Counted from the whole stretch's first letter, positions 2,302 to 29,292 are shown. The stretch is 62,878 bases of DNA, filler included, from Candidatus Rokuibacteriota bacterium (GCA_031406795.1; 7 parts of 7 records of this genome joined end to end with filler, not necessarily neighbours in it), one strand, 5' to 3'. Numbers and translations: made by a program. Notes: generated from the letters alone by a model not told the origin.

Positions 2302-2448
2302 GCTCGAAGCCAGCCGACATTCGGGAGCATGCCGGGGAGGAACAGGAAACACCTCGCAGTACTGATGGCGGTTATATATTCACTAGCACCGCCATGGCGA
2401 TTGTAGTATATATGAGCACACACGGACCATCGTCACGGGAGGCAATCG

Positions 2449-3624: not shown

Positions 3625-3732
3625 CCGGTCCGACGGCGTTCACCGGCGGCGTCGGCGGCCCCCGTCGATCGTCCGGGATCAGGTTCGGCAATCATGCCGT
3701 GCGCGGCCCGGCGTCCGGCCGCTGAAGGAGGA

Positions 3733-6221: not shown

Positions 6222-6257
6222 CTCGGCCCTCCTCACGTGGTCCGCACTTATTTCTTA

Positions 6258-6285
6258 TTGACATCCTGTTGGCATAGTATATCAT
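6258..6285 (+). promoter_or_regulatory. sigma70-type promoter of the rhodanese gene
   Basis: TTGACA-N16-TATCAT in an AT-rich divergent spacer. Confidence 0.65.
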
Positions 6286-6385
6286 AGAGATAGTTATTGT
6301 CGTGTATGTTTTGTGTCACTGGTCGCATCAGGTGTCACGGACGGAATAGGCTATCGAGGTAAGCTGAGGCTGACCAGGCAACTGG

Positions 6386-6436
6386 AGGCCAGGCAGGATC
6401 GACCGAGAACCGGTCGTCCTGCCTGGCCTTTTTTTT
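6386..6436 (+). terminator. Intrinsic terminator inside a 5' leader (attenuator-like)
   Basis: AGGCCAGGCAGGA(T)CGACCG pairs with CGGTCG-TCCTGCCTGGCCT, then a T-run; lies between the promoter and the RBS of the gene at 6455. Confidence 0.85.
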
Positions 6437-6454
6437 ACCCGAAAGGAGAGCGGC

Positions 6455-7417
6455 ATGAAAAAGGTCTTCATTGGTTTTGTTACAGCAGTGGTACTGACGG
6501 CATCGTTCGCCGCGGCGGAAACGGGCACAGGATACAAGGGCTACCCTCGCGGCGATGCACTGGTCAGCGTGCACGAACTCAAGGACTTGATCGAAAGCGG
6601 CACCCCGAACCTCGTCATTATCGAGACCGCGAGCGCAGTGGAGTATTATCTGGGCCACATCCCGGGCGCGCGGCTCGTCGAGCGGGCGGATTTCGAGGCA
6701 CCCCCCGAGACGCAGGACGGTGTCACCGGCAATCTGATCGATGCAACCGGCTTTTCGAAACTCGCGCGAAGGCTCGGCGTCAACCGCGACTCCAAGATCG
6801 TGATCTACGACCGGCGCTGCGATGCGACTCGTCTCTGGTGGGCCTTCTTCTACTTCGGCAAGCTCGACGTGCGCGTTCTCGATGGCGGGATCGTGGCCTG
6901 GAAGAGCGAGGGCAACCCGACCGACCTGCTCGCGGGTGCAGCCCCGATGTCCGGTTCCTTCACCGCGGCCGTAAGCCTCCCGTCGCTTCGCGTGGAGACA
7001 GAAGCGATCGTCGCCCTGCGCTCCGACACCTCAGGACAGCTCTGGGATACCCGCGACCGGAAAGAATTCTGCGGCGAGGAGATGAAGCGTGGGGCGTACC
7101 GGGCGGGACGCATCCCCTGGGGCCGCCACAGCGAGTGGACCCTCTTCAAGAGCAAGGGAAACCCCACCGAATGGCTGCCGGCGGCCGACGTGCTCGCCGT
7201 GCTCGACCGGCTGGGTTTCGACCGCGGCAGCGACCAGTTCTTCTTCTGCCAGTCCGGCGTGCGGTCAACGCAGGCGCTTTTCACGCTGTACCTTGCGGGG
7301 TGGGACATCGAGAAGCTGCACAATTACGACAGTTCCTGGATCGGTTGGTCAAAGGACCCGCAGCTTCCGGTCAAGGTCGGCTGCGCACCGGAGGAGGTCG
7401 CGGCGATTGTTCGTTGA
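6455..7417 (+). CDS. Tandem-domain rhodanese/sulfurtransferase with N-terminal signal peptide
   Basis: GHIPGA, VLDGG, GRIP, active-site loop CQSGVRS, YDSSWIGW; MKK + hydrophobic core + Ala-rich cleavage region. Confidence 0.88.
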   Translation: MKKVFIGFVTAVVLTASFAAAETGTGYKGYPRGDALVSVHELKDLIESGTPNLVIIETASAVEYYLGHIPGARLVERADFEAPPETQDGVTGNLIDATGFSKLARRLGVNRDSKIVIYDRRCDATRLWWAFFYFGKLDVRVLDGGIVAWKSEGNPTDLLAGAAPMSGSFTAAVSLPSLRVETEAIVALRSDTSGQLWDTRDRKEFCGEEMKRGAYRAGRIPWGRHSEWTLFKSKGNPTEWLPAADVLAVLDRLGFDRGSDQFFFCQSGVRSTQALFTLYLAGWDIEKLHNYDSSWIGWSKDPQLPVKVGCAPEEVAAIVR

Positions 7418-8999: not shown

Positions 9000-9272
9000 G
9001 TCGCGCACGCGGCGGCCGGCGAGGAGGACTGGCTGACGGAGATGCCGCCCGACGAGGTGCCCGCCCCCGTCGCGGAGTATGGTACGGACGAGGCGCCGCC
9101 CTGGGCCGTGGCGATGATGGAGGAGCTGCAGCAGCTTCGCGCCGAAAACGCCGCTCTACGCGCGGCGCTGCGGAGCATGACGACACTGCTGGACCGTCAG
9201 ATCGACGTGCTGCGCGAGGGCCGCGACGAGCTCCAGCGCCACGTCGGCGACAATACCGGGGAGAGCGCCTGA
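9000..9272 (+). CDS. Hypothetical protein, 3' part (coiled-coil-like)
   Basis: Open from contig start; stop overlaps purM start (TGATG). Confidence 0.6.
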   Translation, partial: VAHAAAGEEDWLTEMPPDEVPAPVAEYGTDEAPPWAVAMMEELQQLRAENAALRAALRSMTTLLDRQIDVLREGRDELQRHVGDNTGESA

Positions 9273-10348
9273 TGAGGAGCGAACGCTGGACGTATCGCAA
9301 GGCCGGAGTCGACATCGCCGCCGGCAACGAGGCGGTTCGACTGCTCGCGCCGCTGGCGGCCGCCACCCGCCGCGCCGGAGTGCTCGGCGGCATCGGCGGG
9401 TTCGGGGGACTGTTCGCGCTGCCGCCGCGCCTGAAGCGCCCCGTGCTGGTGGCCGCCACCGACGGGGTCGGCACCAAGCTCAAGATCGCCTTCGCGCTGG
9501 ACCGCCACGACACCGTCGGCATCGACCTGGTGGCGATGTCGGTGAACGACATCCTGGTCCAGGGGGCCGAACCGCTCTTCTTTCTCGACTACATCGCCTG
9601 CGGCAAGCTGCGCCCGGGGCGCATCGCCGAACTCGTCAAGGGAATCGCCGACGGCTGCCTGCAGGCCGGGTGCGCGCTGCTCGGCGGCGAGACGGCCGAA
9701 ATGCCCGGCTTCTACCAGCCCGGCGAGTACGATCTGGCGGGGTTCGCCGTCGGCGCGGCTGAGCGCAAGGATCTGATCGACGGCAGCGGCATCCGCCCCG
9801 GCGACGTGTTGCTCGGTCTGCCGTCGAGCGGCCTGCACAGCAACGGCTACAGCCTCGCGCGCGCCGTCGTCGAGGCCCGCTGGGGCGCGGGCGCCTGGCG
9901 GCGCAAGGTGCCCGGCGACGGTCGGAGCATCGGCGAGGCGTTTCTCGCGCCGACGCGCATCTACGTCAAGCCGGTGCTCGGGCTGCTCAAGCGCTTCGCG
10001 GTCGGCGGCATCGTGCACCTGACCGGCGGCGGCTGGACCGAGAACATCCCGCGCGTGCTGCCGGCCGGGTGCGCCGCGGCGGTCGAGTTGGGCTCCTGGC
10101 CCGTGCCGCCGCTGTTCGCGCTGCTCGAGAGCGAGGGGAGGATCGGCCGCGAGGAGATGCTGCGCACCTTCAACCTCGGCATCGGATTGATTCTCATCGT
10201 GCGTCCCCGGGTCGCCGAGGGGCTGCAGAGTGCCCTGCGCCGCCGGGGCGAGGCCTGCCACGTCGTCGGCGCGATCGTCAAGGGCCGCCGCCGGGTGCTC
10301 TATCGCGAGCGCCCGAGCGCGAAGGCCGCCACGCGGACTGCGCGGTGA
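9272..10348 (+). CDS. purM: Phosphoribosylformylglycinamidine cyclo-ligase
   Basis: YRKAGVDI, GGFGG, TDGVGTK, GGETAEMP, SSGLHSNGYS, TFNLGIG. Confidence 0.97.
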   Translation: MRSERWTYRKAGVDIAAGNEAVRLLAPLAAATRRAGVLGGIGGFGGLFALPPRLKRPVLVAATDGVGTKLKIAFALDRHDTVGIDLVAMSVNDILVQGAEPLFFLDYIACGKLRPGRIAELVKGIADGCLQAGCALLGGETAEMPGFYQPGEYDLAGFAVGAAERKDLIDGSGIRPGDVLLGLPSSGLHSNGYSLARAVVEARWGAGAWRRKVPGDGRSIGEAFLAPTRIYVKPVLGLLKRFAVGGIVHLTGGGWTENIPRVLPAGCAAAVELGSWPVPPLFALLESEGRIGREEMLRTFNLGIGLILIVRPRVAEGLQSALRRRGEACHVVGAIVKGRRRVLYRERPSAKAATRTAR

Positions 10349-16409: not shown

Positions 16410-16712
16410 CTACGTGCCGAACGTGGGGGAGTTCCCAGCGGGCGTGCGTTTGACTTTGCGCCAGGTTTCCTCGTAGATCGTTTGCCGCGGGCCGACGGCG
16501 ACGACTTCGATGACGGCGCCGGCGAGCCGGTAGATGATCCGGAATCGGGCGATGCGGCAGCTGCGCAGACCGGCCAGTTCCTCGCGCAGCGCTTTGCCGA
16601 CGGTCGGATCAGCGAGGATGTCGTCGAGCGCCGAGCGGACCTTGCGCTTGAGGTCCGGGTGGAGGCCCCGGATCAGCTCGGCCACGTCGTCGGGGATTCG
16701 CAGGCGGCGCAT
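16410..16712 (-). CDS. RelE/ParE family toxin
   Basis: DPTVGKALREELAGLRSCRIARFRIIY..VAVGPRQTIY; downstream of a Phd antitoxin. Confidence 0.9.
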   Translation of the reverse strand: MRRLRIPDDVAELIRGLHPDLKRKVRSALDDILADPTVGKALREELAGLRSCRIARFRIIYRLAGAVIEVVAVGPRQTIYEETWRKVKRTPAGNSPTFGT

Positions 16713-16724
16713 CGGCGGCGCCGG

Positions 16725-16988
16725 TCAGACGGAGAACAGCTCGTCCAGGGTGTAGAGCTTCGCCTTGCCGCGCTCTAGGGCGGCGAGCCCGCGGCGCACC
16801 TCGGCGACGAGCTCGGCGCTGGCGCGGACGGCGGCGGTCTCTTTCCAGCTCTCGAATTCCTCGGGGCTCACGAGAACCGCCGCCGCGCGGCCATTGCGGG
16901 TGATCACGATCTCCTCGTCGTGCCCCGCGACGGCGTCGAGCAGACTGCTGAGTTTCGCCTTGGCCTCGGAGAGCGGTACCGTCTTCAT
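16725..16988 (-). CDS. Phd/YefM family antitoxin
   Basis: MKTVPLSEAKAKLSSLL..IVITRNGRAAAVLVS; GAGG RBS. Confidence 0.92.
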   Translation of the reverse strand: MKTVPLSEAKAKLSSLLDAVAGHDEEIVITRNGRAAAVLVSPEEFESWKETAAVRASAELVAEVRRGLAALERGKAKLYTLDELFSV

Positions 16989-17002
16989 CGCGTGCACCTC
17001 AT

Positions 17003-17050
17003 ATTGGTCAGAATTGTGACCAATGTAGGCGCGTACGCCGGGCTTGTCAA
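17003..17050 (-). promoter_or_regulatory. Promoter and operator of phd-relE
   Basis: TTGACA-N17-TACATT on the minus strand; IR ATTGGTCA-N6-TGACCAAT (17003-17024) overlaps the -10. Confidence 0.8.
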
Positions 17051-17059
17051 ACGGGGGTC

Positions 17060-17079
17060 GGCGACTCATCTTGACGGCA
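17060..17079 (+). repeat. 20-bp direct repeat, left copy
   Basis: GGCGACTCATCTTGACGGCA, identical to 20584-20603. Confidence 0.9.
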
Positions 17080-17153
17080 TCCAGCGAGTAACGCCGACAA
17101 TCGCAGATCAGCGCCCCCGGTACTTGCCGGTTGATAATCGAGTCGCTCGAGAC

Positions 17154-17177
17154 TATAGTCAGTCTAGTCAGACTATA
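17154..17177. promoter_or_regulatory. Probable autoregulatory operator of phd-vapC
   Basis: TATAGTC-N10-GACTATA inverted repeat just before the RBS. Confidence 0.6.
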
Positions 17178-17188
17178 CGGAGGATGCT

Positions 17189-17440
17189 ATGAAACGGAGC
17201 TGGCAGCTGCAGGAAGCGAAAGCTCGCTTGAGCGAGGTCGTCAAGACTGCCGCCAGGGAAGGGCCCCAGGTGATCACCGTCCGCGGCGAGACGGCGGCCG
17301 TTCTGATCTCGGGAAAGGACTTTGCGCGACTCACGAAGTCGAAACCTGATTTCGTGGCTTTCATGCGCCACTCGCCCCTCGCGGGAGTGGACATCAAGCT
17401 TGCGAGGGATCGATCCACGGACCGTCCGGTGGAGTTGTGA
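17189..17440 (+). CDS. Phd/YefM family antitoxin
   Basis: WQLQEAKARLSEVV..GPQVITVRGETAAV. Confidence 0.92.
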   Translation: MKRSWQLQEAKARLSEVVKTAAREGPQVITVRGETAAVLISGKDFARLTKSKPDFVAFMRHSPLAGVDIKLARDRSTDRPVEL

Positions 17441-17865
17441 GCTACCTCGTCGACACGAACGTCGTCGCCGAACTCGCGCGGCGCGAACCGAATCCACGGG
17501 TGACTGCCTGGTTCCGCGAAGTTCCGGATGCGACGCTTCACCTCAGCGTGCTGACGCTCGGCGAGTTGAGGAAAGGTGTCGAGTCTCTGTCCGATGGCAG
17601 GAGGAGGGAGCGTCTGAGGGTCTGGCTGGAGAACGACCTCGCGGAGTGGTTCGGTGATCGGCTGCTGCCGGTCTCGGCCGGCGTGGCGGATCGTTGGGGT
17701 CGATTGCTGGCCCAGGCCGGGCGCCCGATCCCGGCGATCGACAGCCTCCTTGCGGCAACCGCGCTGCATCACGGCCTGCGGGTGGTGACAAGGAACGAAA
17801 AGGATTTCGTCTTCCCGGGGCTGGATGTCGTCAATCCGTGGGCCAGCGCATCTCCTCTGCCGTGA
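17437..17865 (+). CDS. vapC: VapC PIN-domain toxin
   Basis: YLVDTNVVAE, GELRKG, DSLLAATA, VTRNEKDF; GTGA overlap with the antitoxin. Confidence 0.93.
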   Translation: MSYLVDTNVVAELARREPNPRVTAWFREVPDATLHLSVLTLGELRKGVESLSDGRRRERLRVWLENDLAEWFGDRLLPVSAGVADRWGRLLAQAGRPIPAIDSLLAATALHHGLRVVTRNEKDFVFPGLDVVNPWASASPLP

Positions 17866-18023: not shown

Positions 18024-18056
18024 GTGTCCAATTCTGTCACACCTTGCTGTTACCTT
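18024..18056 (+). promoter_or_regulatory. Putative WYL-regulator operator/promoter of the DUF262 gene
   Basis: GTGTCCAATTCTGTCACACCT-N6-TACCTT; 19/21 identical to the reverse complement of 28096-28116. Confidence 0.75.
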
Positions 18057-18144: not shown

Positions 18145-20565
18145 ATGACAAAGGATCACAGAACTTCCCTAACTTCTACGTACTCATTCGATCTTCGGGA
18201 GATCGCGGCATGGCAACTGGAGATGAAAGCACCTGAGTATCGGCAGCATTACCGCCGAGCATCGCTCCCCCTCCTTCAACGGGGTGCTGTATGGAAGGCA
18301 TACCAAGTCGAGGCACTTTGGGATTCTCTTCTCCGCGGCTTTCCGCTAGGTTCCTTCATTCTCTCCCGCTTCGACCGGCAGATGGGGGAGCAATCTGCCA
18401 AGTACTGCGCTGTGGTTGGCAAAGTCGACAAGGATCCCGAATTTCACATTCTTGATGGTCAGCAACGGGCGAATGCAATTGCCGTCGGGTTCATCGACCC
18501 GACGCTGTCCGCAGGCCTCTATTGCGTGGTCTCCGATTCGGAGGGCTGGCCTCCAGACGCTCTTTGGATCGACCTGGCTCCGGATACGAAGTACTTAAAG
18601 GATCGCTCTTTTCTCTTTCGGATGGTCACCAGATCCCATCCTTGGGGATACCGGGCAAGCAATCCGCGTCAAATACTCCAGACAAAGGACATGCGCGATT
18701 GGATCAAGGAGTTGAAAGGACCGCATTCTAGCCCATCGTTGCAAGTCCGCGTTGGAAAGATTCCGTTGAGCGTTGCCTGGCCGTGGGACGCGAACGCACC
18801 CGTGCCGTTTGCCTTTGTCCTGGAGGCCCTTCTTGAAGGAAGCACCAACCCATGGGAACGAATCCGAGAGCGCCTGGAGTCGATTCCTCACGCGAAGAAG
18901 ATGCTCGACGAGCACCTCACATGGAAGGGGGAGGTTCTTCGACTTCTCAGGACTCCAACGAAGGACATGGAAGTCATTCTCGAAGCGACTTCAAGCGCAC
19001 TTGAGAAAACGACTATCCCGGGCATTGTTGTTGAACCTGGGCGTCTCAAGGGGACTGAAGACTTTCAGATCCTGTTTGCCCGCCTCAACTCGGCCGGCAC
19101 GGATCTTGGCTCAGAAGAGCTTCTCTACTCGATGCTCAAAGCTCAGTGGCCGGAGGCCTATTCTGTTGTCGAAAATGCTGCTGAAGGTCTTATGAGTCCA
19201 TCTCGGCTCGTGCTATTCGCATCTCGGTTAGCCATTGATGAAACCATGGAGAAGGACACACCTCCCCGCACCCCCGATTTTGCTCGGTTTCGCGGCCTCA
19301 TTCGGGGAACTGACCAGCAAGACAGTGACTTTCGGACGCGTATGGCTGGTTACGTCCGGGCAGAGGCAGGGTCACTATTCTTGAACGCACTCAAAGATGC
19401 CCAGAAACTCCTGTGCTACGACAACGATCGGGCAGATGCGAGTGACTTTCGTCTTCCGGGGATGTTGGTGGCGACTATAGCTCAGCAATCCCAAGACATT
19501 TTGTTCGCAGCCATTGTGTGGCTGGCAAGACTGCGGCAAACGGCCGTAGTGGATCCTTCGTCGGCGCCAATCGACAACCTTTCAGAAGCCGAGCGCAGGG
19601 CCTTCGTTGCTGGCATCAGTCTCCTGCATTGGTTCGGTATTGACCAGAGTGCGTGCTTGAGGATTCTGTGGCAGGAAATTCGAACCGCAGGCGATGCTGG
19701 GGAACTGCGCAATATTTGGAGCAGAGTGACAAGAAAGTGTTTTTCGGTTGAAGAAGACCAGAGCATCGTCGCCCTCCCTCCTCTTCCGCCTGACCTGCTT
19801 CTCGATCGCACTTGCCGATCGATGTCGAATTTCGAGAACTGGAACCCGTCTGATTGGAGAGATTGGAATTGGGAAGCAAAGGTCAACGCTCTCCCTGTAG
19901 ACGACCTGGAGAAGTGGATGCAGTCAAGCGTTACGCCACTTTCCCCGTCGCTTAAGGATCTGTCTGACAAGGACCGACTGTGGCCTGCAAATGCGTGGCG
20001 TGAATTTGTTGACCGGATCTTCGGCCAGCGGGAATTGCTGCTGTATGGTCAACGCCGATACATAGGAAGATGGTATCCTGAACACGACCCAGTTCAGGGA
20101 GGCCGACTTGAGGACACCAACCGGCCGTGGGATTACGACCACATCATGCCTTCCTACTACATCGCTGGAAGATGGTCCATTCCCCCAGTCATTAAGAAGT
20201 GGCATGGGACCATTGGAAACCTTCGCATCTGGCCGATGGAGGCAAATCGTTCTGATGGGGAGGAAGTCCCAGCGAAGAAACTCTGGTGCGGCGAGGCGGA
20301 CCTTGATCCCAGCTATGGTTTATCCACACCCGAGGACGTGCAGGCTGCGAGTCTTGTTGGTGATTCTTGGTCTCGCGATCTGCTTGGCGATCAACTCGAT
20401 TCGTGGAAGAGTGCTTCGCCAAGCACGGATGGCAATAACCCTGGTTTCCTGAGAGACGAAGCGAATATTGGCTGTCGTCTCGCTCTACTGAAAGCAATCG
20501 CCAGCCGGACCGTGGGCATCTACAAGAGGTGGTACGACGATCTCGAAATTGGGTCGTTGGTATAG
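18145..20565 (+). CDS. DUF262 + C-terminal HNH-like (DUF1524-type) protein, GmrSD-like modification-dependent restriction enzyme
   Basis: LQRGAVW, SLLRGFPLG, LDGQQR, FARLNSAG; C-terminal DHIMP..IGNL..N; lower GC than host. Confidence 0.82.
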   Translation: MTKDHRTSLTSTYSFDLREIAAWQLEMKAPEYRQHYRRASLPLLQRGAVWKAYQVEALWDSLLRGFPLGSFILSRFDRQMGEQSAKYCAVVGKVDKDPEFHILDGQQRANAIAVGFIDPTLSAGLYCVVSDSEGWPPDALWIDLAPDTKYLKDRSFLFRMVTRSHPWGYRASNPRQILQTKDMRDWIKELKGPHSSPSLQVRVGKIPLSVAWPWDANAPVPFAFVLEALLEGSTNPWERIRERLESIPHAKKMLDEHLTWKGEVLRLLRTPTKDMEVILEATSSALEKTTIPGIVVEPGRLKGTEDFQILFARLNSAGTDLGSEELLYSMLKAQWPEAYSVVENAAEGLMSPSRLVLFASRLAIDETMEKDTPPRTPDFARFRGLIRGTDQQDSDFRTRMAGYVRAEAGSLFLNALKDAQKLLCYDNDRADASDFRLPGMLVATIAQQSQDILFAAIVWLARLRQTAVVDPSSAPIDNLSEAERRAFVAGISLLHWFGIDQSACLRILWQEIRTAGDAGELRNIWSRVTRKCFSVEEDQSIVALPPLPPDLLLDRTCRSMSNFENWNPSDWRDWNWEAKVNALPVDDLEKWMQSSVTPLSPSLKDLSDKDRLWPANAWREFVDRIFGQRELLLYGQRRYIGRWYPEHDPVQGGRLEDTNRPWDYDHIMPSYYIAGRWSIPPVIKKWHGTIGNLRIWPMEANRSDGEEVPAKKLWCGEADLDPSYGLSTPEDVQAASLVGDSWSRDLLGDQLDSWKSASPSTDGNNPGFLRDEANIGCRLALLKAIASRTVGIYKRWYDDLEIGSLV

Positions 20566-20583: not shown

Positions 20584-20623
20584 GGCGACTCATCTTGACG
20601 GCAAGCCACGGAAGACTTACTAT
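20584..20623 (+). promoter_or_regulatory. Right copy of the 20-bp direct repeat, containing the -35 of the abrB-PIN promoter
   Basis: Repeat at 20584-20603; TTGACG(20595)-N17-TACTAT(20618). Confidence 0.75.
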
Positions 20624-20661: not shown

Positions 20662-20910
20662 ATGGCAGTCAAGGTGATGAAGGTCTCCAGTAAGGGGCAG
20701 GTGACCCTTCCCCGGGAGGTCCGCAAGATCCTCGGGTCGGATGTGGTCACCTACGACCTCCGGGACGGACGGGTGTTGCTCCTCCCGGTGAAGGACGTGG
20801 GAGGCAGCCTCAAGGAGTACGCCGGGAGGCTGCCGATGCCGTTCAAGCGCGCTCGGGAGAAAGCCTGGGAGGACGTCGTCCGTGAAAAGGCCGGCCGGGC
20901 GGATACCTGA
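20662..20910 (+). CDS. AbrB/MazE/SpoVT family antitoxin
   Basis: KVSSKGQVTLPREVRKILG. Confidence 0.9.
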   Translation: MAVKVMKVSSKGQVTLPREVRKILGSDVVTYDLRDGRVLLLPVKDVGGSLKEYAGRLPMPFKRAREKAWEDVVREKAGRADT

Positions 20911-21283
20911 CACCAACGCGATCGTCCGCTATCTCCTGCGGGATCACCCCACCCTTTCTCCGAAGGCCGAAGAGTTCTTTGCCCGCGTTCGCACGGGAGA
21001 GCAGAAGGTCCTCATCCTGGAGAGCGTCATCGCCGAAGCTGTCTACGTCCTGACGAAGGCCTACGGCGTTCCCCGGGAAAAGGCCGTGGGCGGGCTGCTT
21101 GGGCTCCTCAACTACCGCGGGGTGGCCAACCATGACCGGGCCTCGCTCATCGATGCTTTGGCGCTCTTCGGTGCCGGCAAGCTCGACATCGTCGATTGCA
21201 TCGTCATCGCCCGGGCTCGGCGTGAGCACGGCGAGCCCTTCTCGTTCGATAAGGACCTCTTGAAGGAATCTGGTGGTGCCTGA
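20882..21283 (+). CDS. PIN-domain (VapC-like) toxin
   Basis: DTNAIVRYL, VIAEAVYVL, DIVDC, FSFDKDL. Confidence 0.88.
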   Translation: MKRPAGRIPDTNAIVRYLLRDHPTLSPKAEEFFARVRTGEQKVLILESVIAEAVYVLTKAYGVPREKAVGGLLGLLNYRGVANHDRASLIDALALFGAGKLDIVDCIVIARARREHGEPFSFDKDLLKESGGA

Positions 21284-24200
21284 CGTCGGGCAGCCTGAAC
21301 GCGCCACGCAGCAGCGCGTCGTCGCGCTCTTCCGCGACGAGCTCGGATACCGCTACCTCGGGGACTGGACCGACCGCGAGGGGAACAGCAACGTCGAGGA
21401 GGGGCTTCTCAGCGCGAACCTGAGCCGGCGGGGCTACTCGCCGGCGCAGATCGGCAGGGCGATCCACGCGCTGCGCACCGAAGCCGACAACCACGCTCGC
21501 AGCCTGTACGCGAACAACAAGGCGGTCTACGTACTGCTGCGCTACGGCGTCCCGGTGAGGCTGGCGGCGGGGGAGGCGACGGAGACCGTCCACCTCGTCG
21601 ACTGGCGGGATCCTGCGGCGAACGACTTCGCCATCGCCGAGGAGGTCACGCTGAGGGGGAACCTCGAGCGGCGCCCCGACCTCGTGCTCTACGTCAACGG
21701 TATCGCCGTCGGCGTGCTGGAGTTGAAGAACAGCCGCGTCAGCATCGGCGACGGCATCCGGCAGAGCCTGTCGAACCAGAAGCCGGAGTTCAATGCGTGG
21801 TTCTTCGGCACCGTGCAGTTCGTCTTCGCGGGGAACGACTCGGAGGGGCTGCGCTACGGCACCGTCGGGACGCCGGAGACCTACTTCCTGCGGTGGAAGG
21901 AGGACGAGGCGGACGACCGCCGCTTCACGCTGGACAAGTACCTGTTGAAGATCTGCGCAAAGGAGCGGCTGATCGAGCTGATGCGCGACTTCGTGCTCTA
22001 CGACGGCGGCGTGAAGAAGCTCCCCCGCGCGCACCAGTACTTCGGTATCAAGGCAGCACAGCGGCACGTGCGCGAGCTCCGCGGCGGCATCATCTGGCAC
22101 ACCCAAGGGAGCGGCAAGAGCATCGTCATGGTGCTGCTGGCCCGGTGGATTCTGGAGAACAACCCGAACGCCCGGGTGGCGATCGTCACCGACCGCGACG
22201 AGCTGGACAAGCAGATCGAGCGGGTCTTCGCCGAGGCGGGGGAGGCGATCCTGCGCTGCACCAGCGGCCGCGACCTGATGAGCCGGCTCGAGCAGGCCCG
22301 GCCGCGCCTGCTCTGCTCGCTGGTCCACAAGTTCGGGCGGCGTGACGTCGACGACTTCGACGCCTTCATCCGGGAGCTGGAGGCGCAGCCGGGCCGGGCG
22401 GTCGGCGAGATCTTCGTCTTCGTGGACGAGTGCCACCGGACCCAGAGCGGCAGGCTGCACCGGGCAATGAAGGCGCTCCTGCCGGAGGCGGTCTTCATCG
22501 GGTTCACCGGGACGCCGCTGCTGAAGCGGGACCGGCAGATGAGTCTCGAAGTCTTCGGCGGCTACATCCACACCTACAAGTTCAGCGAGGCGGTGCAGGA
22601 CGCGGTGGTGCTCGACCTGGTCTACGAGGCGCGGGACATCGACCAGCGCCTCGGCTCCCCGCAGAGGATCGACGCCTGGTTCGACGCCAAGACCCGCGGG
22701 CTGAACGACTGGCAGCGCGAGGAGTTGAAGCGGCAGTGGGGGACGATGCAGCGCGTGCTCAGCTCGCGCTCGCGGATGGAGCGGGTGGTCAGCGACGTGC
22801 TCTTCGACTTCAGCGTCAAGCCGCGCCTCTCCAGCGAGCACGGCAACGCCATCCTGGTCGCCTCGAGCATCCACGAGGCGTGCAAGTACTTCACGCTCTT
22901 CCAGAAGACGCCGCTCAAGGGGAAGTGCGCTGTCGTGACCTCCTACAACCCGCACGCGCAGGACGTGACCAGGGAGGAGATCGGGGCCAACACCGAGACC
23001 GAGAAGCAGTTCGTCTACAACACCTACACCGAGCTGCTCGCAAGCGTCGAGGCGCTGCCGGGGATGACCCGGACCGAGGGCTACGAGGAGCGCGCCAAGA
23101 GGCTCTTCGTCAAAGAGCCCGCGAGCATGAAGCTGCTCGTGGTGGTCGACAAGCTGCTGACCGGGTTCGACGCGCCGCCGTGCACCTACCTCTACATCGA
23201 CAAGTCGATGCAGGACCACGGCCTCTTCCAGGCGATCTGCCGCGTCAACCGGCTGGACGGCGACGACAAGGAGTTCGGCTACATCGTCGACTACAAGGAC
23301 CTCTTCCGGAAGGTCGAGAACGCCATCGCGGTCTACGCCTCGGAGCTGGATCACAGTGCGGGGGGCGCCGACCCGGAGGTGCTGCTGCAGGACCGCCTCG
23401 CGAAGGGGAAGGAGCGCCTCGACCAGGCGCTGGAGGCGATCGCGCTGCTCTGCGAGCCGGTGGCGCCGCCGAAGGGCGAGCTGGAGCACATCCGCTACTT
23501 CTGCGGCAACACCGAGATCCCGGAGGACCTCAAGGCGCGAGAGCCGCAGCGGGCCGCTCTCTACAAGGCGACGGTGGCGTTGCTCCGCGCCTACGCCGCC
23601 ATCGCCGACGAGCTGGAGGCCGCGGGGTACGGCAGCGCCGACGTCGCGCGGATCAAGCGGCAGGTCCAGCACTACCTGGACGTCCGCGAGATCGTGCGCA
23701 AGGCCAGCGGGGAAAGCCTCGACCTCAAGGCCTACGAGGCGGACATGCGCCACCTGATCGACACCTACATCGAGGCCGACGACCCGCGGAAGATCTCGCC
23801 GTTCGACGACATCGGGCTGCTCGATCTGATCGTGAAGACCGGCATCGCCAACGCCATCGCCGCGCAGCTCGGGAAGATGAAGGGGAACCGGGACGCCGTC
23901 GCCGAGACGATCGAGAACAACGTCCGCAGGCGGATCATCAAGGAGCATCTGAACGATCCGGCCTTCTTCGCGAGGATGTCGGCGCTGCTCGACGAGATCA
24001 TCCGTTTCCGCAAGGAGCGGGCCGACGCGTACGAGGAGTACCTGAAGCGCATCGCCGAGCTGGTGAAGCAGGTCGCCGCCGGCCACGGCGAGGAGATCCC
24101 CGAGCAGCTCAAGAGGAGCCCGGCCCTCCGGGCGCTCTACAACAACCTCAAGGCGGGCGGACGGCGACCCGACAGGGCGGATCGGGCGGCCGAGGGGTTC

Positions 24201-24401
24201 GGCGACGAGGCGTCGCCGCACGATCCCGAACTGCGCCTGGCGATGGCCATCGACGAGACCGTCAAGCGGGTCCGGCCCGACGGCTGGCGCGGCGTGCAGG
24301 CTCGCGAGCTGGTCGTCAAGCGGGCACTGTATGACCTGCTGCACGACGAATCCGAGGTCGAACGGATCTTCCTGATCGTCAAGGCGCAGAGCGAGTACTG
24401 A
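21276..24401 (+). CDS. hsdR: Type I restriction endonuclease subunit R
   Basis: RPDLVLYVNG..ELKN nuclease motif, HTQGSGKS Walker A, DECHR, FTGTP, LLTGFDAP, QAICRVNR. GTG start at 21273 or 21276. Confidence 0.96.
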   Translation: MPDVGQPERATQQRVVALFRDELGYRYLGDWTDREGNSNVEEGLLSANLSRRGYSPAQIGRAIHALRTEADNHARSLYANNKAVYVLLRYGVPVRLAAGEATETVHLVDWRDPAANDFAIAEEVTLRGNLERRPDLVLYVNGIAVGVLELKNSRVSIGDGIRQSLSNQKPEFNAWFFGTVQFVFAGNDSEGLRYGTVGTPETYFLRWKEDEADDRRFTLDKYLLKICAKERLIELMRDFVLYDGGVKKLPRAHQYFGIKAAQRHVRELRGGIIWHTQGSGKSIVMVLLARWILENNPNARVAIVTDRDELDKQIERVFAEAGEAILRCTSGRDLMSRLEQARPRLLCSLVHKFGRRDVDDFDAFIRELEAQPGRAVGEIFVFVDECHRTQSGRLHRAMKALLPEAVFIGFTGTPLLKRDRQMSLEVFGGYIHTYKFSEAVQDAVVLDLVYEARDIDQRLGSPQRIDAWFDAKTRGLNDWQREELKRQWGTMQRVLSSRSRMERVVSDVLFDFSVKPRLSSEHGNAILVASSIHEACKYFTLFQKTPLKGKCAVVTSYNPHAQDVTREEIGANTETEKQFVYNTYTELLASVEALPGMTRTEGYEERAKRLFVKEPASMKLLVVVDKLLTGFDAPPCTYLYIDKSMQDHGLFQAICRVNRLDGDDKEFGYIVDYKDLFRKVENAIAVYASELDHSAGGADPEVLLQDRLAKGKERLDQALEAIALLCEPVAPPKGELEHIRYFCGNTEIPEDLKAREPQRAALYKATVALLRAYAAIADELEAAGYGSADVARIKRQVQHYLDVREIVRKASGESLDLKAYEADMRHLIDTYIEADDPRKISPFDDIGLLDLIVKTGIANAIAAQLGKMKGNRDAVAETIENNVRRRIIKEHLNDPAFFARMSALLDEIIRFRKERADAYEEYLKRIAELVKQVAAGHGEEIPEQLKRSPALRALYNNLKAGGRRPDRADRAAEGFGDEASPHDPELRLAMAIDETVKRVRPDGWRGVQARELVVKRALYDLLHDESEVERIFLIVKAQSEY

Positions 24402-25117
24402 TGGCCCGGCAGCTGAGGCTGGGCGACGTCACGGCCGACGTCGTCTTGAAGGACATCAGGAACATCCATCTCAGCGTCTATCCCCCGACAGGTCGGGTGC
24501 GCATCTCCGCCCCCCTGCACATGAGCCTCGACACCATCCGCGTCTTCGCGATCGCCAAGCTCGGCTGGATCAGGAAGCAGCAGGCCAGGCTTCGGGCTCA
24601 GGTGCGCGAGACGCCGCACGAGTACGTGGACCGGGAGAGCCACCACCTCTGGGGGAGACGCTACCTGTTGAAGGTGGTCGAGGCCGACCGGACGCCATCG
24701 ATAGAGGTAAAGGGCGGATCTCTGCTCCTGCGGGCGCGAGCGGGGTCCGACCGGGCGAAGCGGCGGGATGTGATGGATGCCTGGTATCGCGATCAACTCA
24801 GGGAGGCTGTGCCGCCTTTGATCGCGGCGTGGGCGCCGGCCATCGGCGTGACCGTGGAGCGCTTCTTCGTGCAGCGGATGCGGACCCGATGGGGCAGCTG
24901 CTCACCCGGCCGGCGCACCATCCGCCTGAACACCGACCTGGCGCGCAAGCCGCGGGAGTGCCTGGAGTACATCGTCGTTCACGAACTCGCCCACCTGTCG
25001 GAGCCGACGCACAGTGCCCGCTTCGTCGCGCTGATGGACCGGCTCATCCCGGGCTGGCGCCACCGGCGGGACCAGCTGAACCAGCTCCCCGTCCGCCACG
25101 AGGAGTGGTCCTATTAA
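24401..25117 (+). CDS. M48/SprT-like (DUF45/YgjP) HExxH metal-dependent hydrolase
   Basis: MRTRWGSC, YIVVHELAH; usual position after hsdR; TGATG overlap. Confidence 0.92.
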   Translation: MARQLRLGDVTADVVLKDIRNIHLSVYPPTGRVRISAPLHMSLDTIRVFAIAKLGWIRKQQARLRAQVRETPHEYVDRESHHLWGRRYLLKVVEADRTPSIEVKGGSLLLRARAGSDRAKRRDVMDAWYRDQLREAVPPLIAAWAPAIGVTVERFFVQRMRTRWGSCSPGRRTIRLNTDLARKPRECLEYIVVHELAHLSEPTHSARFVALMDRLIPGWRHRRDQLNQLPVRHEEWSY

Positions 25118-25207: not shown

Positions 25208-25675
25208 TTACCGCAACCCGTACAGATACAGCAGCGCCGCCCAGCCTGACGGGAGGTGAGCGGGCGAGGTCTCGAGCTCGTTCCCGTACCTGACCGCCAT
25301 CTCCAGGAAGAAGCGGGCGTGGAAGAACGCCTCGAGGATCGGCCGGGTTTGCCGGGTCCACTCCTGGTTGTGAGCCGACTCGAATTTTTTGCCGCTCGCC
25401 CCGTCCTGAAGGATCTCCTCGAACATCGGGTTGAAGGTGGTGATCCCTGCCGGCGCCAGGCTCTTCAGGACCTCGACGATGCTCCTGGTCAACTCCTGAC
25501 GCTCGTAGACCTTCCACGACTGGTGGTAGAACCGATACACGGTATCCTCGTACTCGTAGTCCGAACTCATCTCCTCGATGAGGTACTCCAACTCCGGCAA
25601 TCGCGCCTGGATGTTCGCGAGCAGCTCGTTGGACTTCGCCTCCAGTTCGCTCAGGTCCATGTATTTCCGTGTCAA
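25208..25675 (-). CDS. Hypothetical protein
   Basis: AGGAGG RBS + TTG (or ATG at 25660); protein-like motifs YRFYHQSWKVY, EAFFHARFFLEM, LPSGWAALLYLY. Confidence 0.8.
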   Translation of the reverse strand: MTRKYMDLSELEAKSNELLANIQARLPELEYLIEEMSSDYEYEDTVYRFYHQSWKVYERQELTRSIVEVLKSLAPAGITTFNPMFEEILQDGASGKKFESAHNQEWTRQTRPILEAFFHARFFLEMAVRYGNELETSPAHLPSGWAALLYLYGLR

Positions 25676-25720
25676 TTGAGCCTCCTGTCAACGCCTGGCG
25701 GGCAGGTCGCTCCGTCATGT

Positions 25721-26479
25721 TCATGCACTGACTTGGCGATTCTCTTGCATGGCCTCTTTGATTGTTTTTATCAGTTTCTTTCGCCATTCATTGGATTGCC
25801 GTCCGGGATGGGCGCATTCAATAATGATCTGCGAACCATGTCTTCTTGCAGAGAATTCTTCTCGATTGTAAAGAACCACATTCTCAGAATCGAACAACTT
25901 GTCGAGCACCTCATACCGCTTAGTGAACAGAACGGTGATTTTGGCATTGACTGTTAGGATTTCCTTTGCCAGATATTCATGCTTCAAGCAATTGGCGTGC
26001 AGATTCCTTTGGTAGGAAGAGTTACCCGACAAGCATTTGCATGCATTGGAGAATGCAACTTTCTCCAGCTTGTCATTCCAACTATATGCTTTGTCTGTGA
26101 AGAGGGAATCAATCACGTCCTTTATTATCGCCCAGTAGGTCCCCATCGATTCGATCGTGTTGAATGAGAACTGCAAGGGGCTGAAGCAGATACTGTCAAT
26201 GTCGTTTGGCCAGCCGGCATCGCCGTGCCATCCAAAATGATCTCTCCCAACGAAAAGAATTTCCGGGTCTTTTCCTATCCAGTAAATTCCTTGTGGACCA
26301 TCACGATCCGGTTTTTCTGAATATCCTGCTCTTGCTTCTGTGCACTCTTTAATACAGGCAGGCAAATGTTTATTGTAGTAATCCCATATCTCAATGTACT
26401 TATTTCTTGATCCCCGAAAGTGCTCGAGAAACTTTTCATTATTTCTGTTCAGGTGTTTCTTGAATTCTGTGTCCCACAA
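25721..26479 (-). CDS. Low-GC protein, probable uracil-DNA-glycosylase-like fold
   Basis: AAGGAG RBS + TTG at 26479; ordered ILFVGRD, VAFSNACKC, LAKEI..VLFT, CAHP match the UDG-superfamily motif layout. Confidence 0.6.
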   Translation of the reverse strand: MWDTEFKKHLNRNNEKFLEHFRGSRNKYIEIWDYYNKHLPACIKECTEARAGYSEKPDRDGPQGIYWIGKDPEILFVGRDHFGWHGDAGWPNDIDSICFSPLQFSFNTIESMGTYWAIIKDVIDSLFTDKAYSWNDKLEKVAFSNACKCLSGNSSYQRNLHANCLKHEYLAKEILTVNAKITVLFTKRYEVLDKLFDSENVVLYNREEFSARRHGSQIIIECAHPGRQSNEWRKKLIKTIKEAMQENRQVSA

Positions 26480-26558
26480 TTTACTTTCTCCTTTTGCGGC
26501 CCGACCAGAGTGCGTCTGACTGTGACGCACCAAGAAATGAAGCACCTCTTCCAGTGAG

Positions 26559-28043
26559 TCATTGGACCATCTCCCGCAGCTTCTCCACGATCCGCACCAT
26601 CGCCAGCGTGTCGAGACCGCAGTAATCGAGCAGGGCATTGCGGATGCGGGCCACCTCCTGCGGGTCCTGGGTGGCGCACATCTCGTAGTAGGCGGTCATC
26701 GCCATTCCACCGTTGGCGACATCCATCTCATCGTACGAGAGTTCGGGGACGAGGAGCGGCAACACGTCCTTGATCGAGGAGGACCCCTTCTGTTGCCAGA
26801 AGTAGACCGAGCGGGCCTGGAAGAGTTTGATCGGGTCGTGGAATGACTCCAGCAGGCGCCCGATCCGCGTAGCGTACGGCGGGAGGTGCTTGGCAAGTTC
26901 GCGGAGCCTGGTCTTCTCGAAAGACTCATACCAGGCGATGACACTCGCGCCCTCGGGGATCTGCCCGAGGAGCGTCGCGGTAAGCTCTTCCCTCGGGTCA
27001 ATACCGGGCTGTGCCAGGAACTCGTGGTGCACGAGAGCCGCGCCTTCGCTCGGCTGGACGTGCAATGAGTACTGGAAGGGGATCATTTTATAGGGGCGCG
27101 ATTCATCGAACAGCGGGATTGCCGGGTTCACCGTCTCGAAATCGAGATAGCAGATGGGATAGCGGAGTGCGTCGAGAAACCGGCGAACTTCCTTCGTCTT
27201 GAGGGTGTTGCACTGCTTGATGGTCGATTCGACCTGGTGTCGTTGCTTTTCGCTCAACAAGTTTGCCGGGATGTCGCTCTGGCGCACCATTCCCTGACGG
27301 TACAAATCGAATCGCTTCGAGACAGTGAGCCTGCCAACCGTGAACACCGAGTCCTCCGGGATGTGCTGCCAGCAGTGCTTGTGGAAGTCGCAGTCGTACG
27401 GATCGCTGCAATGCGATCCGATGTCGATCGTCGGCATCTTCTCCTGGAGCATTGCCCGCATTTCGGCGATCTCGGACCCAATGTCCGTCTGCATCTTCCT
27501 GACGTCGGCCGTGATGTCCACAATCTTGAAGAGTTTCTGGACGTCGATGTCGCCGCGGCGTGTGTAGCGATTGTCGACGTGGACTATGGCAACTTTCGCG
27601 ATCTTCAGCCCGGCGCCGGCGAGGACATACAACTGGATCGCCGCATCGAAATAATAGTGCTCCTTGACCTCGGCAGCCCCCTTCACCTCGAGGATCTCCC
27701 AGCCCGCGTCGCCGCGGTGCAGGATGTCGACCTTGACGAAGACGCCGTCATGCTCGAACGTTGCCTCGTAGATGGTCTCCTTGCCCTGATCGAGGAGATC
27801 TTGCGTCATCGCCAGCTGCTCGGGGTGTGTCATGCCCTCGTAGGGAACTTCGACGCCGCCCGGGAAGAGCTGCTGCGCCAGCTTCCCGATCTCGTGGCCG
27901 CTGCGGAACCGCGCCTGCAGACTCGCGTCGGCTTCCTCGCTCAGATCCGGCTGGTGCTTCCTCAGCCAGAGCCTCTTGTGGCACTGATGACCGGCCATGA
28001 ACAACGATTTACTGAGGTATCCCGACACCTTACGCTCTGCCAT
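26559..28043 (-). CDS. DUF2779-domain protein (Cas4-like PD-(D/E)xK N-domain + RNase H/exonuclease-like C-domain)
   Basis: LSKS..QCHKRLWL, YEATF, VDIL..ILEVK, CSDPYDCDFHKHC, YLDFET, PFQYSLH, SIKDVLP, YCGLDTLAMV; GGAGGAG RBS. Confidence 0.88.
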   Translation of the reverse strand: MAERKVSGYLSKSLFMAGHQCHKRLWLRKHQPDLSEEADASLQARFRSGHEIGKLAQQLFPGGVEVPYEGMTHPEQLAMTQDLLDQGKETIYEATFEHDGVFVKVDILHRGDAGWEILEVKGAAEVKEHYYFDAAIQLYVLAGAGLKIAKVAIVHVDNRYTRRGDIDVQKLFKIVDITADVRKMQTDIGSEIAEMRAMLQEKMPTIDIGSHCSDPYDCDFHKHCWQHIPEDSVFTVGRLTVSKRFDLYRQGMVRQSDIPANLLSEKQRHQVESTIKQCNTLKTKEVRRFLDALRYPICYLDFETVNPAIPLFDESRPYKMIPFQYSLHVQPSEGAALVHHEFLAQPGIDPREELTATLLGQIPEGASVIAWYESFEKTRLRELAKHLPPYATRIGRLLESFHDPIKLFQARSVYFWQQKGSSSIKDVLPLLVPELSYDEMDVANGGMAMTAYYEMCATQDPQEVARIRNALLDYCGLDTLAMVRIVEKLREMVQ

Positions 28044-28083
28044 GATCTTTTCCACTCCTCCCCGAGTGTATGATACTGTTGCC

Positions 28084-28116
28084 AAAATAAGCCTCAGGTG
28101 TGACAGAATCGGACGC
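28084..28116 (-). promoter_or_regulatory. Putative WYL-regulator operator/promoter of the DUF2779 operon
   Basis: Minus strand GCGTCCGATTCTGTCACACCT-N6-TATTTT in the divergent spacer; twin of 18024-18056. Confidence 0.75.
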
Positions 28117-28127
28117 AGCAGTAGTGA

Positions 28128-29165
28128 ATGTTTTCCTGGGGGATGACTATGTATTGGGCGCGGCACCTGGTCAAGCTGCTCAAAGCGGTCGAACTCATCG
28201 GCCGGCCGCAGGGCGCCACGATCGACGAACTGGTGGAGCGGCTCGAGATAAACAAGCGTACCGCCTACCGGATGATTGAAACGATGGACGAGATGAGCTT
28301 CCCGTTCTACGAGGACACTTCGTCACTGGACGGAAAAAAACACTATCAGTTCGAGCCGCACTTCTTGAAGAAACTCCCCAACCTGAGCGTGCCGGAGCTG
28401 CGGCTCTCGCTCTCCGAGATCATCGCGCTGTCGTTCATCCGGGGGAGCAGCGGCCCGTTCAAGGGAACCGACGTCGAGGAGGACATCGAGAGCGCGTTCA
28501 GGAAGATGGACGCCTTCATACCCGAGAAGTTCGTGACGCAGCTGGACAAGGTGCGGACCCTCTTCACCGCCCCAGGCCGTTTCACGAAGGACTACCGCGA
28601 CAAGGACGAGGTCATCGGCGCCCTCACCGACGCGATGTTCAAGCAACTGACCTGCCTCGTGGAGTACCACTCCTTCCACGACGACAAGGTGAAGCACTTC
28701 AAGATCGACCCGCTGCGGTTCGTCGAACGCGACGGCGGGCTGTACGTCTTCGTCAATACGACGAGCTACGGAGACATCCGGCTCCTTGCCGTGGAGCGGA
28801 TCCTGAAACTGACGCCAAGCGACAAACAATTCACGGTGCCCGAGGATTTCGACCCTGACACGTTGCTCGAGACCGCCTTCAACCTGACCATCGGTGATCC
28901 CGTCACGGTGAAGGTACGGTTCTCCGCGGACCAGGCCCGCTACGTGAAGGAGCGCCGCTGGGCGGCCACGCAGACCCTGACCGACCAGCCCGACGGCTCG
29001 GTGATCCTCGAACTCGAAACCTCCGGCCGCTGGGATGTGAAGCGCTGGGTGCTCGCGTTCGGCGCGGATGCGGAACTCCTGGAGCCCGAGGATCTGCGGC
29101 AGGAGATCGCCGCGGATCTCGGCAGCATGATTAAGGCATATTCTCGAAAAACCAAGCATCATTAG
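28128..29165 (+). CDS. wHTH-WYL-WCX transcriptional regulator (YafY/BrxR/DriD-like)
   Basis: N-terminal HTH (TIDELVERLEINKRTAYR), IDPLRF..GGLYV..LAVERI, WCX (WVLAFGADAELLEPEDLR). Start may be 28143 or 28149. Confidence 0.93.
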   Translation: MFSWGMTMYWARHLVKLLKAVELIGRPQGATIDELVERLEINKRTAYRMIETMDEMSFPFYEDTSSLDGKKHYQFEPHFLKKLPNLSVPELRLSLSEIIALSFIRGSSGPFKGTDVEEDIESAFRKMDAFIPEKFVTQLDKVRTLFTAPGRFTKDYRDKDEVIGALTDAMFKQLTCLVEYHSFHDDKVKHFKIDPLRFVERDGGLYVFVNTTSYGDIRLLAVERILKLTPSDKQFTVPEDFDPDTLLETAFNLTIGDPVTVKVRFSADQARYVKERRWAATQTLTDQPDGSVILELETSGRWDVKRWVLAFGADAELLEPEDLRQEIAADLGSMIKAYSRKTKHH

Positions 29166-29191
29166 ACAAATCGTTTATGGAGCACATGCCT

Positions 29192-29285
29192 GGCGGAGGG
29201 GTGGCGCGGAGGGGAGGACTCCATCGGCGGAACGGAGTGAGCACGATGGAGATCCGCAGCGTCGGGACCCCGCAGCCTGCACGGG
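29192..29285 (+). repeat. Dispersed structured element, short copy
   Basis: Shares a 5' block, a TCCGCAGCG core and a 21-nt 3' block with 53873-54107; CTCCATCG/CGATGGAG stem. Confidence 0.75.
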
Positions 29286-29292
29286 GAGGAAG

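Follow-up and report, generated by a model that had tools for sequence, protein, structure and literature searches.

An Island-Borne WYL Regulator of Likely DdaA/DriD Type and Its Putative Regulon, Including a DUF2779 Nuclease Operon, in a Candidatus Rokuibacteriota Bacterium

Introduction

Do four neighbouring genes at the edge of a defence island form one anti-phage system, or does the regulator among them serve a larger set of promoters? This question is raised by positions 25208 to 29165 of a stretch of DNA of 62,878 nucleotides (the window, filler included) from Candidatus Rokuibacteriota bacterium (GCA_031406795.1), in which separate contigs are strung together by N spacers. The locus lies on contig C147 (window 15853-36865) of a 4.1 Mb assembly with 67% GC; the C147 stretch is also present in freshwater-sediment metagenome runs, and no RNA run was among the runs listed as carrying it. 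A first, sequence-only reading had described a WYL regulator gene and, divergent from it, three co-oriented genes for a DUF2779 nuclease, a protein of the uracil-DNA glycosylase (UDG) fold and a hypothetical protein, converging on hsdR and an M48 peptidase gene. It had proposed an undescribed anti-phage module, with DNA repair as the alternative. The arrangement was borne out, with corrected coordinates. The regulator, which has winged helix-turn-helix (wHTH), WYL and WCX domains (Pfam HTH_11/WYL/WCX) and is likely of the DdaA/DriD type, is encoded on the plus strand at 28149..29165 (the open reading frame (ORF) opens at 28128, and 28149 is the likely start). The minus strand carries the genes of the DUF2779 protein (26559..28043; 494 amino acids (aa), ATG start), a rare UDG-superfamily protein (25721..26479; 252 aa) and an all-helical protein of 150-155 aa (25208..25675, alternative start 25660), with intergenic gaps of 79 bp and 45 bp, respectively. 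No named system was recognised here either, and a PADLOC 2.0 run gave partial Cas4 and WYL matches only for the four genes.

In this study, we believe, with a probability of roughly 55%, that the locus belongs to an island-restricted, damage- or infection-inducible regulon of the DdaA type, with swappable restriction, DNA-end-processing and repair cargo. Because about ten promoters on a larger island carry the box attributed to the WYL protein, the unit would be a regulon and not a self-contained four-gene system. Literature searches, with supplements and subscription papers outside their scope, found no paper describing a WYL-boxed DUF2779 unit.

Results

Operator Boxes

A box with the consensus TGTC-N6-TGTCAC-N10-TAnnnT was found upstream of the DUF2779 gene and also upstream of a GmrSD-like gene 10 kb away. 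Box 1 (CGTCC-N5-TGTCAC, minus strand, 28096..28115, with the 19-bp box itself at 28114-28096) lies between the DUF2779 gene and the WYL start. Box 2 (TGTCC-N5-TGTCAC-N10-TACCTT, plus strand, 18025..18056 including the -10-like element, with the 19-bp box itself at 18026-18044) stands before the plus-strand gene of a type IV restriction-like protein of 806 aa containing GmrSD_N (DUF262), at 18145..20565. The two boxes are identical at 18 of 19 bases, and these 2 matches in the window compare with 0.01 expected. The distance from TGTCAC to the following TAnnnT (TATTTT at 28089-28084 for box 1) is exactly 10 nt at both sites, as it is in the PafBC element, tGTCgg(N10)tA(N3)T (PMC8635444). A sigma70-type -35/-10 promoter was found at neither window box.

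The box sites total ten, 2 on C147 and 8 on a second contig of the assembly, C194, and each stands 10 nt ahead of a -10-like hexamer. When only the 8 C194 sites went into the matrix, it scored the window sites at 33.7 and 26.2 bits, and the next best site in 4.1 Mb reached 18.7 bits; when only the two window sites went into it, three C194 sites ranked next. The test is thus not circular, because the sites of each contig find those of the other. DdaA binds CGWCA-N5-TGWCG and activates repair, restriction-modification (RM) and CRISPR genes (PMC12392091); the box described here has the same geometry and different outer bases (YGWCH-N5-TGTCAY). A pattern of the DdaA geometry had 8 matches in the genome, all on C147 and C194. 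Among DUF2779 loci it occurred 7 times in the 20 that bear a WYL gene (shuffled mean 1.05, maximum 3) and twice in the 83 without one (shuffled mean 2.45).

WYL Regulator

The best solved-structure matches of the WYL protein were 9PFQ and 8TP8 (full length, E about 1e-8, given as 6.5e-9 for the pair), which we take to be DriD structures, followed by PafBC. No chain named BrxR or CapW was among its 11 structure matches at E<=1. R44 and R48 in the recognition helix align with the Arg pair of 9PFQ/8TP8, and Ala221 (in LLAVERI) replaces the first Arg that binds single-stranded DNA (ssDNA), as in the L003, L009, L044 and L073-type homologues. Ala at this position is the hallmark of DdaA (PMC12392091), and studies have described the split between activators and repressors among WYL regulators and the -26 position (PMC10853764, PMC10693628). 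These features suggest that the protein is likely an activator of the DdaA/DriD type. The host has LexA, and its recA promoter is without a box. A second WYL gene of the genome (L146, G000:C188, near 3364) has a TGACA-N6-TGTCA palindrome of its own, with a -10-like hexamer 10 nt downstream.

Extent of the Island

In the same-genus genome G002, one gene lies directly before the alpha-2-macroglobulin gene. In the genome studied here, the end of that gene is at C194:1162 and the macroglobulin gene comes after the WYL gene on C147, with matching orientation, so that C194 and C147 are likely parts of the same island. The genes behind the C194 boxes encode a ClpP paralogue (ClpP2) with a 752-aa AAA+ ATPase, a PDC-S11-like nuclease, a twin-arginine protein with KptA, twin-arginine-tagged copies of FtsZ and of the DnaA ATPase, and SbcDC-like proteins. 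On this contig (L144, G000:C194) the ClpP paralogue gene is coupled to that of the 752-aa WHD-AAA+ ATPase at 1172-4038, and at a distance of 2.5 kb, at 6257-6547, there is a truncated second copy of the ClpP start that has a box too. Three genes with twin-arginine leaders, including the FtsZ and DnaA-ATPase copies, are each boxed (L144, 7175-10381; L140, 3562-4671).

Contig C30 (L156, 1-2827) opens with the tail of SbcC, which shares 92.7% identity with the C194 end and is probably a strain variant or duplicate that broke the assembly, and continues with type I hsdM. C147 carries hsdR and no hsdM; the hsdM of C30 is a likely partner of the window hsdR. Parallels were seen elsewhere. For example, in metagenome locus L044 of another organism, the closest WYL relative (48%), a box, ClpP2 (73%), the AAA+ ATPase (43%) and DUF2779 stand in one operon, and in a Rhodoferax antarcticus plasmid a twin-arginine FtsZ copy lies beside AAA-DUF2779-WYL.

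DUF2779 Protein and Its Neighbourhoods

The DUF2779 protein combines a Cas4/RecB-like PD-(D/E)XK domain with a 1+3 Cys pattern and a DEDDy exonuclease domain; it scored 126.6 bits against PF11074 (curated cut-off 23.3) and 24.5 bits against Cas_Cas4 in Pfam. In 40 aligned homologues, picked from the best 120 of 3406 matches, the nuclease and Cys residues (E93, D106, E119, K121, Q137, C21, C212, C218 and C224) and the DEDDy residues (D301, E303, D403, Y474 and D478) were all invariant (40/40), which upholds the nuclease motif, Cys pattern and second exonuclease domain noticed from the sequence. Searching the PDB with profiles yielded no useful match to this protein, the glycosylase or the 150-aa protein. 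The sequence-only reading saw no cas1 or array on the contig, and a search of the whole 99.9%-complete assembly, aimed at Cas1 and not at arrays, also gave no Cas1 match (the control search was positive in 7 of 14 known genomes); a CRISPR-adaptation role of the Cas4-like domain was rejected because the assembly has no cas1. The architecture itself has already been published as family F.17 (PMC3985635) and MMSYN1_0389 (PMC13621843), and the latter is quasi-essential in JCVI-syn3.0 (PMC13621843). We believe that the protein is likely a DNA-end-degrading helper, as predicted from its domains. A 535-aa ORF extension and a 76-aa ORF at 26449-26679 were rejected as an over-long start or a spurious frame. 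In another genome (L152, G099:C54:16227-17737), the DUF2779 gene is broken into two frames.

Since a scan of genome contigs with the single DUF2779 protein found 1 locus, context was counted from metagenome, viral, plasmid and genome loci (22-51% identity). WYL genes are strongly enriched beside DUF2779: 14 genes at 13 of 80 metagenome loci in 551 kb of flank, or 25 per Mb with a profile built from these loci, compared with 70 matches to a different profile, PF13280, in 101 whole genomes. By hand classification, a restriction, defence or conflict gene adjoins DUF2779 at 29 of 91 loci (McrBC, GmrSD, HsdR, type III Res, BrxL, OLD, PvuRts1I, SIR2, PD-(D/E)XK, PLD and others), versus housekeeping or repair genes such as topA, glnA, recA, RecD2 and DprA at about 11; the 91 loci leave out 7 known WYL neighbours, one 1581-aa protein, nine distant viral loci, duplicates and the own locus. 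The defence-island setting on which the sequence-only reading built stood; some DUF2779 lineages look housekeeping, and the choice it posed between defence and repair did not hold, since cargo of both kinds would share control here.

Searches of the same-genus genomes found neither DUF2779 nor the 150-aa gene (3/3, 78-95% complete). One of them carries a 37-codon remnant 76% identical to the WYL C-terminus (L119, G002:C154:2021-2131), which suggests the trace of a lost cassette copy.

UDG-Fold Gene

The middle gene differs from its surroundings in composition, with a GC of 0.44 and a third-position GC (GC3) of 0.50, compared with a GC3 of 0.83-0.89 in its three neighbours. A contig of run X5, which comes from another study, is about 89% alike and passes from 25661 straight to 26567, with 15 other letters in place of 905 bases; this junction is seen in one contig, with 49 letters on the short side. 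Runs X5 and X6 cover the WYL, DUF2779, 150-aa and M48 genes, and in both the UDG-fold gene is uncovered. Because the X5 contig skips this gene and neither run covers it, the operon of the close relative consists of DUF2779 and the 150-aa gene, and the glycosylase is likely an inserted passenger. Profiles of the UDG-fold and 150-aa proteins found nothing at 125 other DUF2779 loci (105, plus 6 from plasmids and 14 from genomes; the 105 are 108 minus the own locus, one duplicate and one lacking the DUF2779 gene), where many flanks are short and identities are 22-51%. The claim that the four genes are one module therefore fell: one of them is a low-GC insert missing from a relative, and the combination is not conserved.

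The UDG fold that had been named for this protein was confirmed by a model (pLDDT 87), which matched the Thermotoga maritima family-4 UDG 1L9G with a Z-score of 12.7 and a root-mean-square deviation (rmsd) of 3.6 over 171 aligned residues; the top ten structural matches were all UDG-fold chains, with no Brig entry among the fold matches. The UDG hallmarks (motif A, Asn and the HP of motif B) are present, with G78, N145, K148, H224 and P225 invariant in 16 diverse homologues, in which C42 is also invariant and C46, C149 and C164 are kept in at least 90%. These four Cys, which may correspond to the Fe-S ligands of family 4, suggest a family-4-like Fe-S enzyme. The gene has a TTG start with AGGAG 8 nt upstream, and the database protein is also 252 aa long; a 305-aa ORF was rejected for its over-long start. 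The family is rare, with 28 proteins in one search and 20 clusters at E<=1e-10 among 1.84 billion in another, and no relative was found in the viral contigs searched. NCBIfam and PADLOC gave no defence match, the presence of a Brig model in those libraries being uncertain. Brig1, whose best match is the Sulfolobus family-4 UDG, also has a defence-island setting (PMC11078745); by analogy, the predicted glycosylase may act on phage DNA in a similar antiviral role, a suggestion that we make tentatively. At L009, a different UDG-superfamily gene (9164-9916) converges on DUF2779 in an unrelated WYL-AAA locus; it was rejected as a member of the same family (hhalign probability 9%).

150-aa Protein

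The 150-aa protein belongs to a widespread family without a name (3207 matches), and its gene adjoins DUF2779 directly in the X5 contig. HEPN chains were among its top fold matches, all weakly (best Z-score 5.3, rmsd 3.9, 106 aligned). The usual HEPN motif is Rx4-6H, and the invariant R106-x7-H114 of the family differs from it in spacing. There was no usable Atlas match, no Foldseek match at E<=0.001, no PHROG match and no match in INPHARED phages; these null searches do not establish a new fold. Of 16 loci of the family, none (0/16) had DUF2779 or WYL. The family is fused to cREC in genome G180, and in another genome it lies between a similar AAA+ ATPase gene and a cREC gene (L154, 5512-6390, and L155, 2750-3190, for these two bacterial genomes). 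It is also carried at 14 viral loci (L121-L134), on contigs of 29-259 kb with nucleotide- and tRNA-repair genes around it; at some of these loci it adjoins NUDIX, Thg1 or isochorismatase genes. One study links cREC and KptA to the repair of RNA ends and describes cREC as occurring only in contexts of RNA repair and cyclic ADP-ribose processing (PMC9503650); because of this link, nucleotide or RNA repair is a lead only for the 150-aa protein.

Other Features of the Window

Between the GmrSD-like gene and the DUF2779 operon, the plus strand carries an AbrB/MazE-PIN toxin-antitoxin pair (20662..21283) with its own sigma70-like promoter at 20595-20623, and type I hsdR with the YgjP/M48 peptidase gene (21273..25117). 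The island holds 3 toxin-antitoxin pairs (16460-17865 and 20662-21283): two have Pfam PIN matches, and the third is a RelE/Phd-like minus-strand pair read by eye. At the right edge of the island, before the alpha-2-macroglobulin gene, lies an interspersed host repeat of about 110 bp without strand (29178..29291), which gave 65 BLAST matches in its own genome and dozens in every same-genus genome.

Discussion

A Proposed Island Regulon

We believe that the locus probably forms the right-hand end of a genomic island no shorter than 28 kb, whose own WYL protein is likely an activator of the DdaA/DriD type. In this model, DNA damage or infection would yield a nucleic-acid signal, upon which the WYL protein would switch on about ten boxed promoters; a dimer would bind the box and recruit RNA polymerase, as PafBC, DriD, SiwR and DdaA do. 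One output would be the DUF2779 operon, whose Cas4/RecB-like and 3'-5' DEDDy domains may degrade or trim DNA ends; the protein would serve the adjoining restriction enzymes as a clean-up helper and not as a sensor of its own. The inserted glycosylase would come under the same inducible promoter, and its predicted activity is the excision of a modified or damaged base. The remaining boxed cargo (GmrSD-like, SbcDC-hsdM, ClpP2-AAA+, KptA, PDC-S11-like nuclease and Tat-FtsZ/DnaA) would add to a mixed response of restriction, repair and possibly growth arrest.

Several observations weigh against this regulon. The WYL protein resembles the solved activators only weakly in sequence, and the products of two further WYL genes in the genome, on C27 and C188, could also read the boxes. 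At two of the C194 boxes the -10 position is occupied by AATGAT, and a box was present at only 6 of the 20 WYL-bearing DUF2779 loci. No listed sequence piece bridges the left end of C147 and the reads did not join it to C30 or C194; the overlap of C30 and C194 is at 92.7% only, and the pieces examined showed neither an integrase nor a target-site duplication. A WYL gene lay in the available flank at only 13 of the 80 metagenome DUF2779 loci. In one family (f291, L157-L162), 27 of 30 genomes carry a single copy of DUF2779, and its neighbourhood there is partly conserved and non-defence, with peptidase and sigma-factor neighbours at the loci inspected; in a second family, it is single-copy in 28 of 61 genomes. 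The f291 proteins are likely a housekeeping lineage, and since JCVI-syn3.0 also depends on a quasi-essential copy, the DUF2779 family has housekeeping members too.

We also speculated on a wider version of this regulon, which we consider doubtful. A family of mobile islands with a DdaA-type alarm would act as an island-encoded second SOS against phage, combining restriction, a two-headed DNA-end nuclease, a new family of Fe-S glycosylases aimed at modified bases in phage DNA, the repair of RNA ends, and decoy copies of FtsZ and DnaA, tagged for export, that would halt division and replication.

Alternative Explanations

The alternative that survives best, although we hold it to be unlikely, is a pure accessory module for DNA and RNA damage repair, in which the WYL protein would induce a repair exonuclease, a glycosylase and RNA-end repair, and the restriction genes would be mere neighbours. 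DriD, PafBC and SiwR control damage responses (PMC10853764, PMC8635444, PMC10693628), and MrfB, a repair nuclease, is the closest match to the DEDD domain of one DUF2779 protein (PMC13621843). DUF2779 is near-core in one family, recA, RecD2 or DprA adjoin some of its loci, KptA and SbcDC stand behind boxes, and the cREC fusion of the 150-aa family in G180 points the same way. However, one box lies directly before the GmrSD-like restriction gene, the host has LexA and an unboxed recA promoter, the cassette was not found in the three same-genus genomes, and DdaA itself activates RM and CRISPR genes (PMC12392091).

It is quite unlikely, in our opinion, that the glycosylase alone is an anti-phage effector, acting against a modified phage base as Brig proteins do, with the other genes as carriers. 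Its best fold class and its size resemble those of Brig1, and it is a rare protein of foreign composition inserted in a defence island, but no Brig entry was among its fold matches, and its four conserved Cys point to a family-4-like Fe-S enzyme that could serve repair. A dedicated four-gene system, with nuclease, glycosylase and small protein acting together against phage, is very improbable. The genes are co-oriented and close, have ribosome-binding sites and stand behind one boxed promoter, a glycosylase followed by a nuclease would be a plausible pathway, and DUF2779 adjoins the 150-aa gene in the close relative; the skipped and uncovered glycosylase gene in X5 and X6 nevertheless largely refutes it, neither small gene was found at the 105 + 6 + 14 other DUF2779 loci (many with short flanks), and the loci of the 150-aa family lack DUF2779 and WYL (0/16). 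Least probable of all is a BrxR/CapW-type repressor that keeps toxic island genes off until ssDNA releases it: the WYL gene is divergent at the edge of a defence island and the box overlaps positions -35 to -26, from which a repressor could work as well, but the fixed 10-nt spacing to the -10 element without a sigma70-type -35/-10 promoter is an activator design (PMC8635444), the solved-structure matches are of the DriD/PafBC type with none named BrxR or CapW, and the DdaA-type Ala is present.

If the island regulon is real, DUF2779, a widespread family that includes a quasi-essential gene of the minimal cell, gains a candidate inducing signal and promoter, and a WYL activator rather than a repressor would likely run a defence island, with ten natural variants of its box. 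The box also offers a route to co-regulated defence cargo in fragmented assemblies and links Tat-tagged FtsZ and DnaA copies to a regulator, and the inserted glycosylase is a candidate for a new enzyme specific to a modified base.

Comparison with Known Systems

Like the PF11074/DUF2779 family described as F.17 and MMSYN1_0389 (PMC3985635, PMC13621843), the nuclease has a Cas4-like domain fused to a DEDDy exonuclease with both catalytic sets intact. Unlike MMSYN1_0389, which has two Cys and is quasi-essential, the clade described here keeps all four Cys and is accessory and island-borne. The UDG-fold protein resembles Brig1-3 (PMC11078745; bioRxiv 10.64898/2026.02.25.707755) in its superfamily, a family-4 best structural match, a size of about 250 aa, the lack of a Pfam label and a defence-island location. 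In contrast to them, it has four conserved Cys that suggest an Fe-S cluster and its gene lies inside a WYL-boxed operon; the likeness considered here is one of fold.

Among the WYL regulators, BrxR and CapW share a WYL gene heading defence cargo. They are repressors of a separate clade (PMC12392091), whereas in the present case promoter design and sequence favour an activator. The mycobacterial regulators PafBC and SiwR share a TGTC-type element exactly 10 nt before TAnnnT and no -35 element; in contrast, PafBC is a heterodimer with about 150 targets and SiwR controls a single adjacent dinB-like operon (PMC8635444, PMC10693628). The closest likeness is to DdaA of Moraxellaceae (PMC12392091) and DriD of Caulobacter (PMC10853764), with which the protein shares the wHTH-WYL-WCX architecture and the Arg pair of the recognition helix, and with DdaA also the Ala for the first ssDNA-binding Arg and half-sites 5 nt apart. 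The outer bases of the box are T...A here and C...G in DdaA, and its upstream half is largely degenerate. On the chromosome of its hosts, DdaA takes the place of SOS and has recA among its targets; in contrast, this host keeps LexA, its recA is unboxed, and the boxes are confined to what is probably one accessory island.

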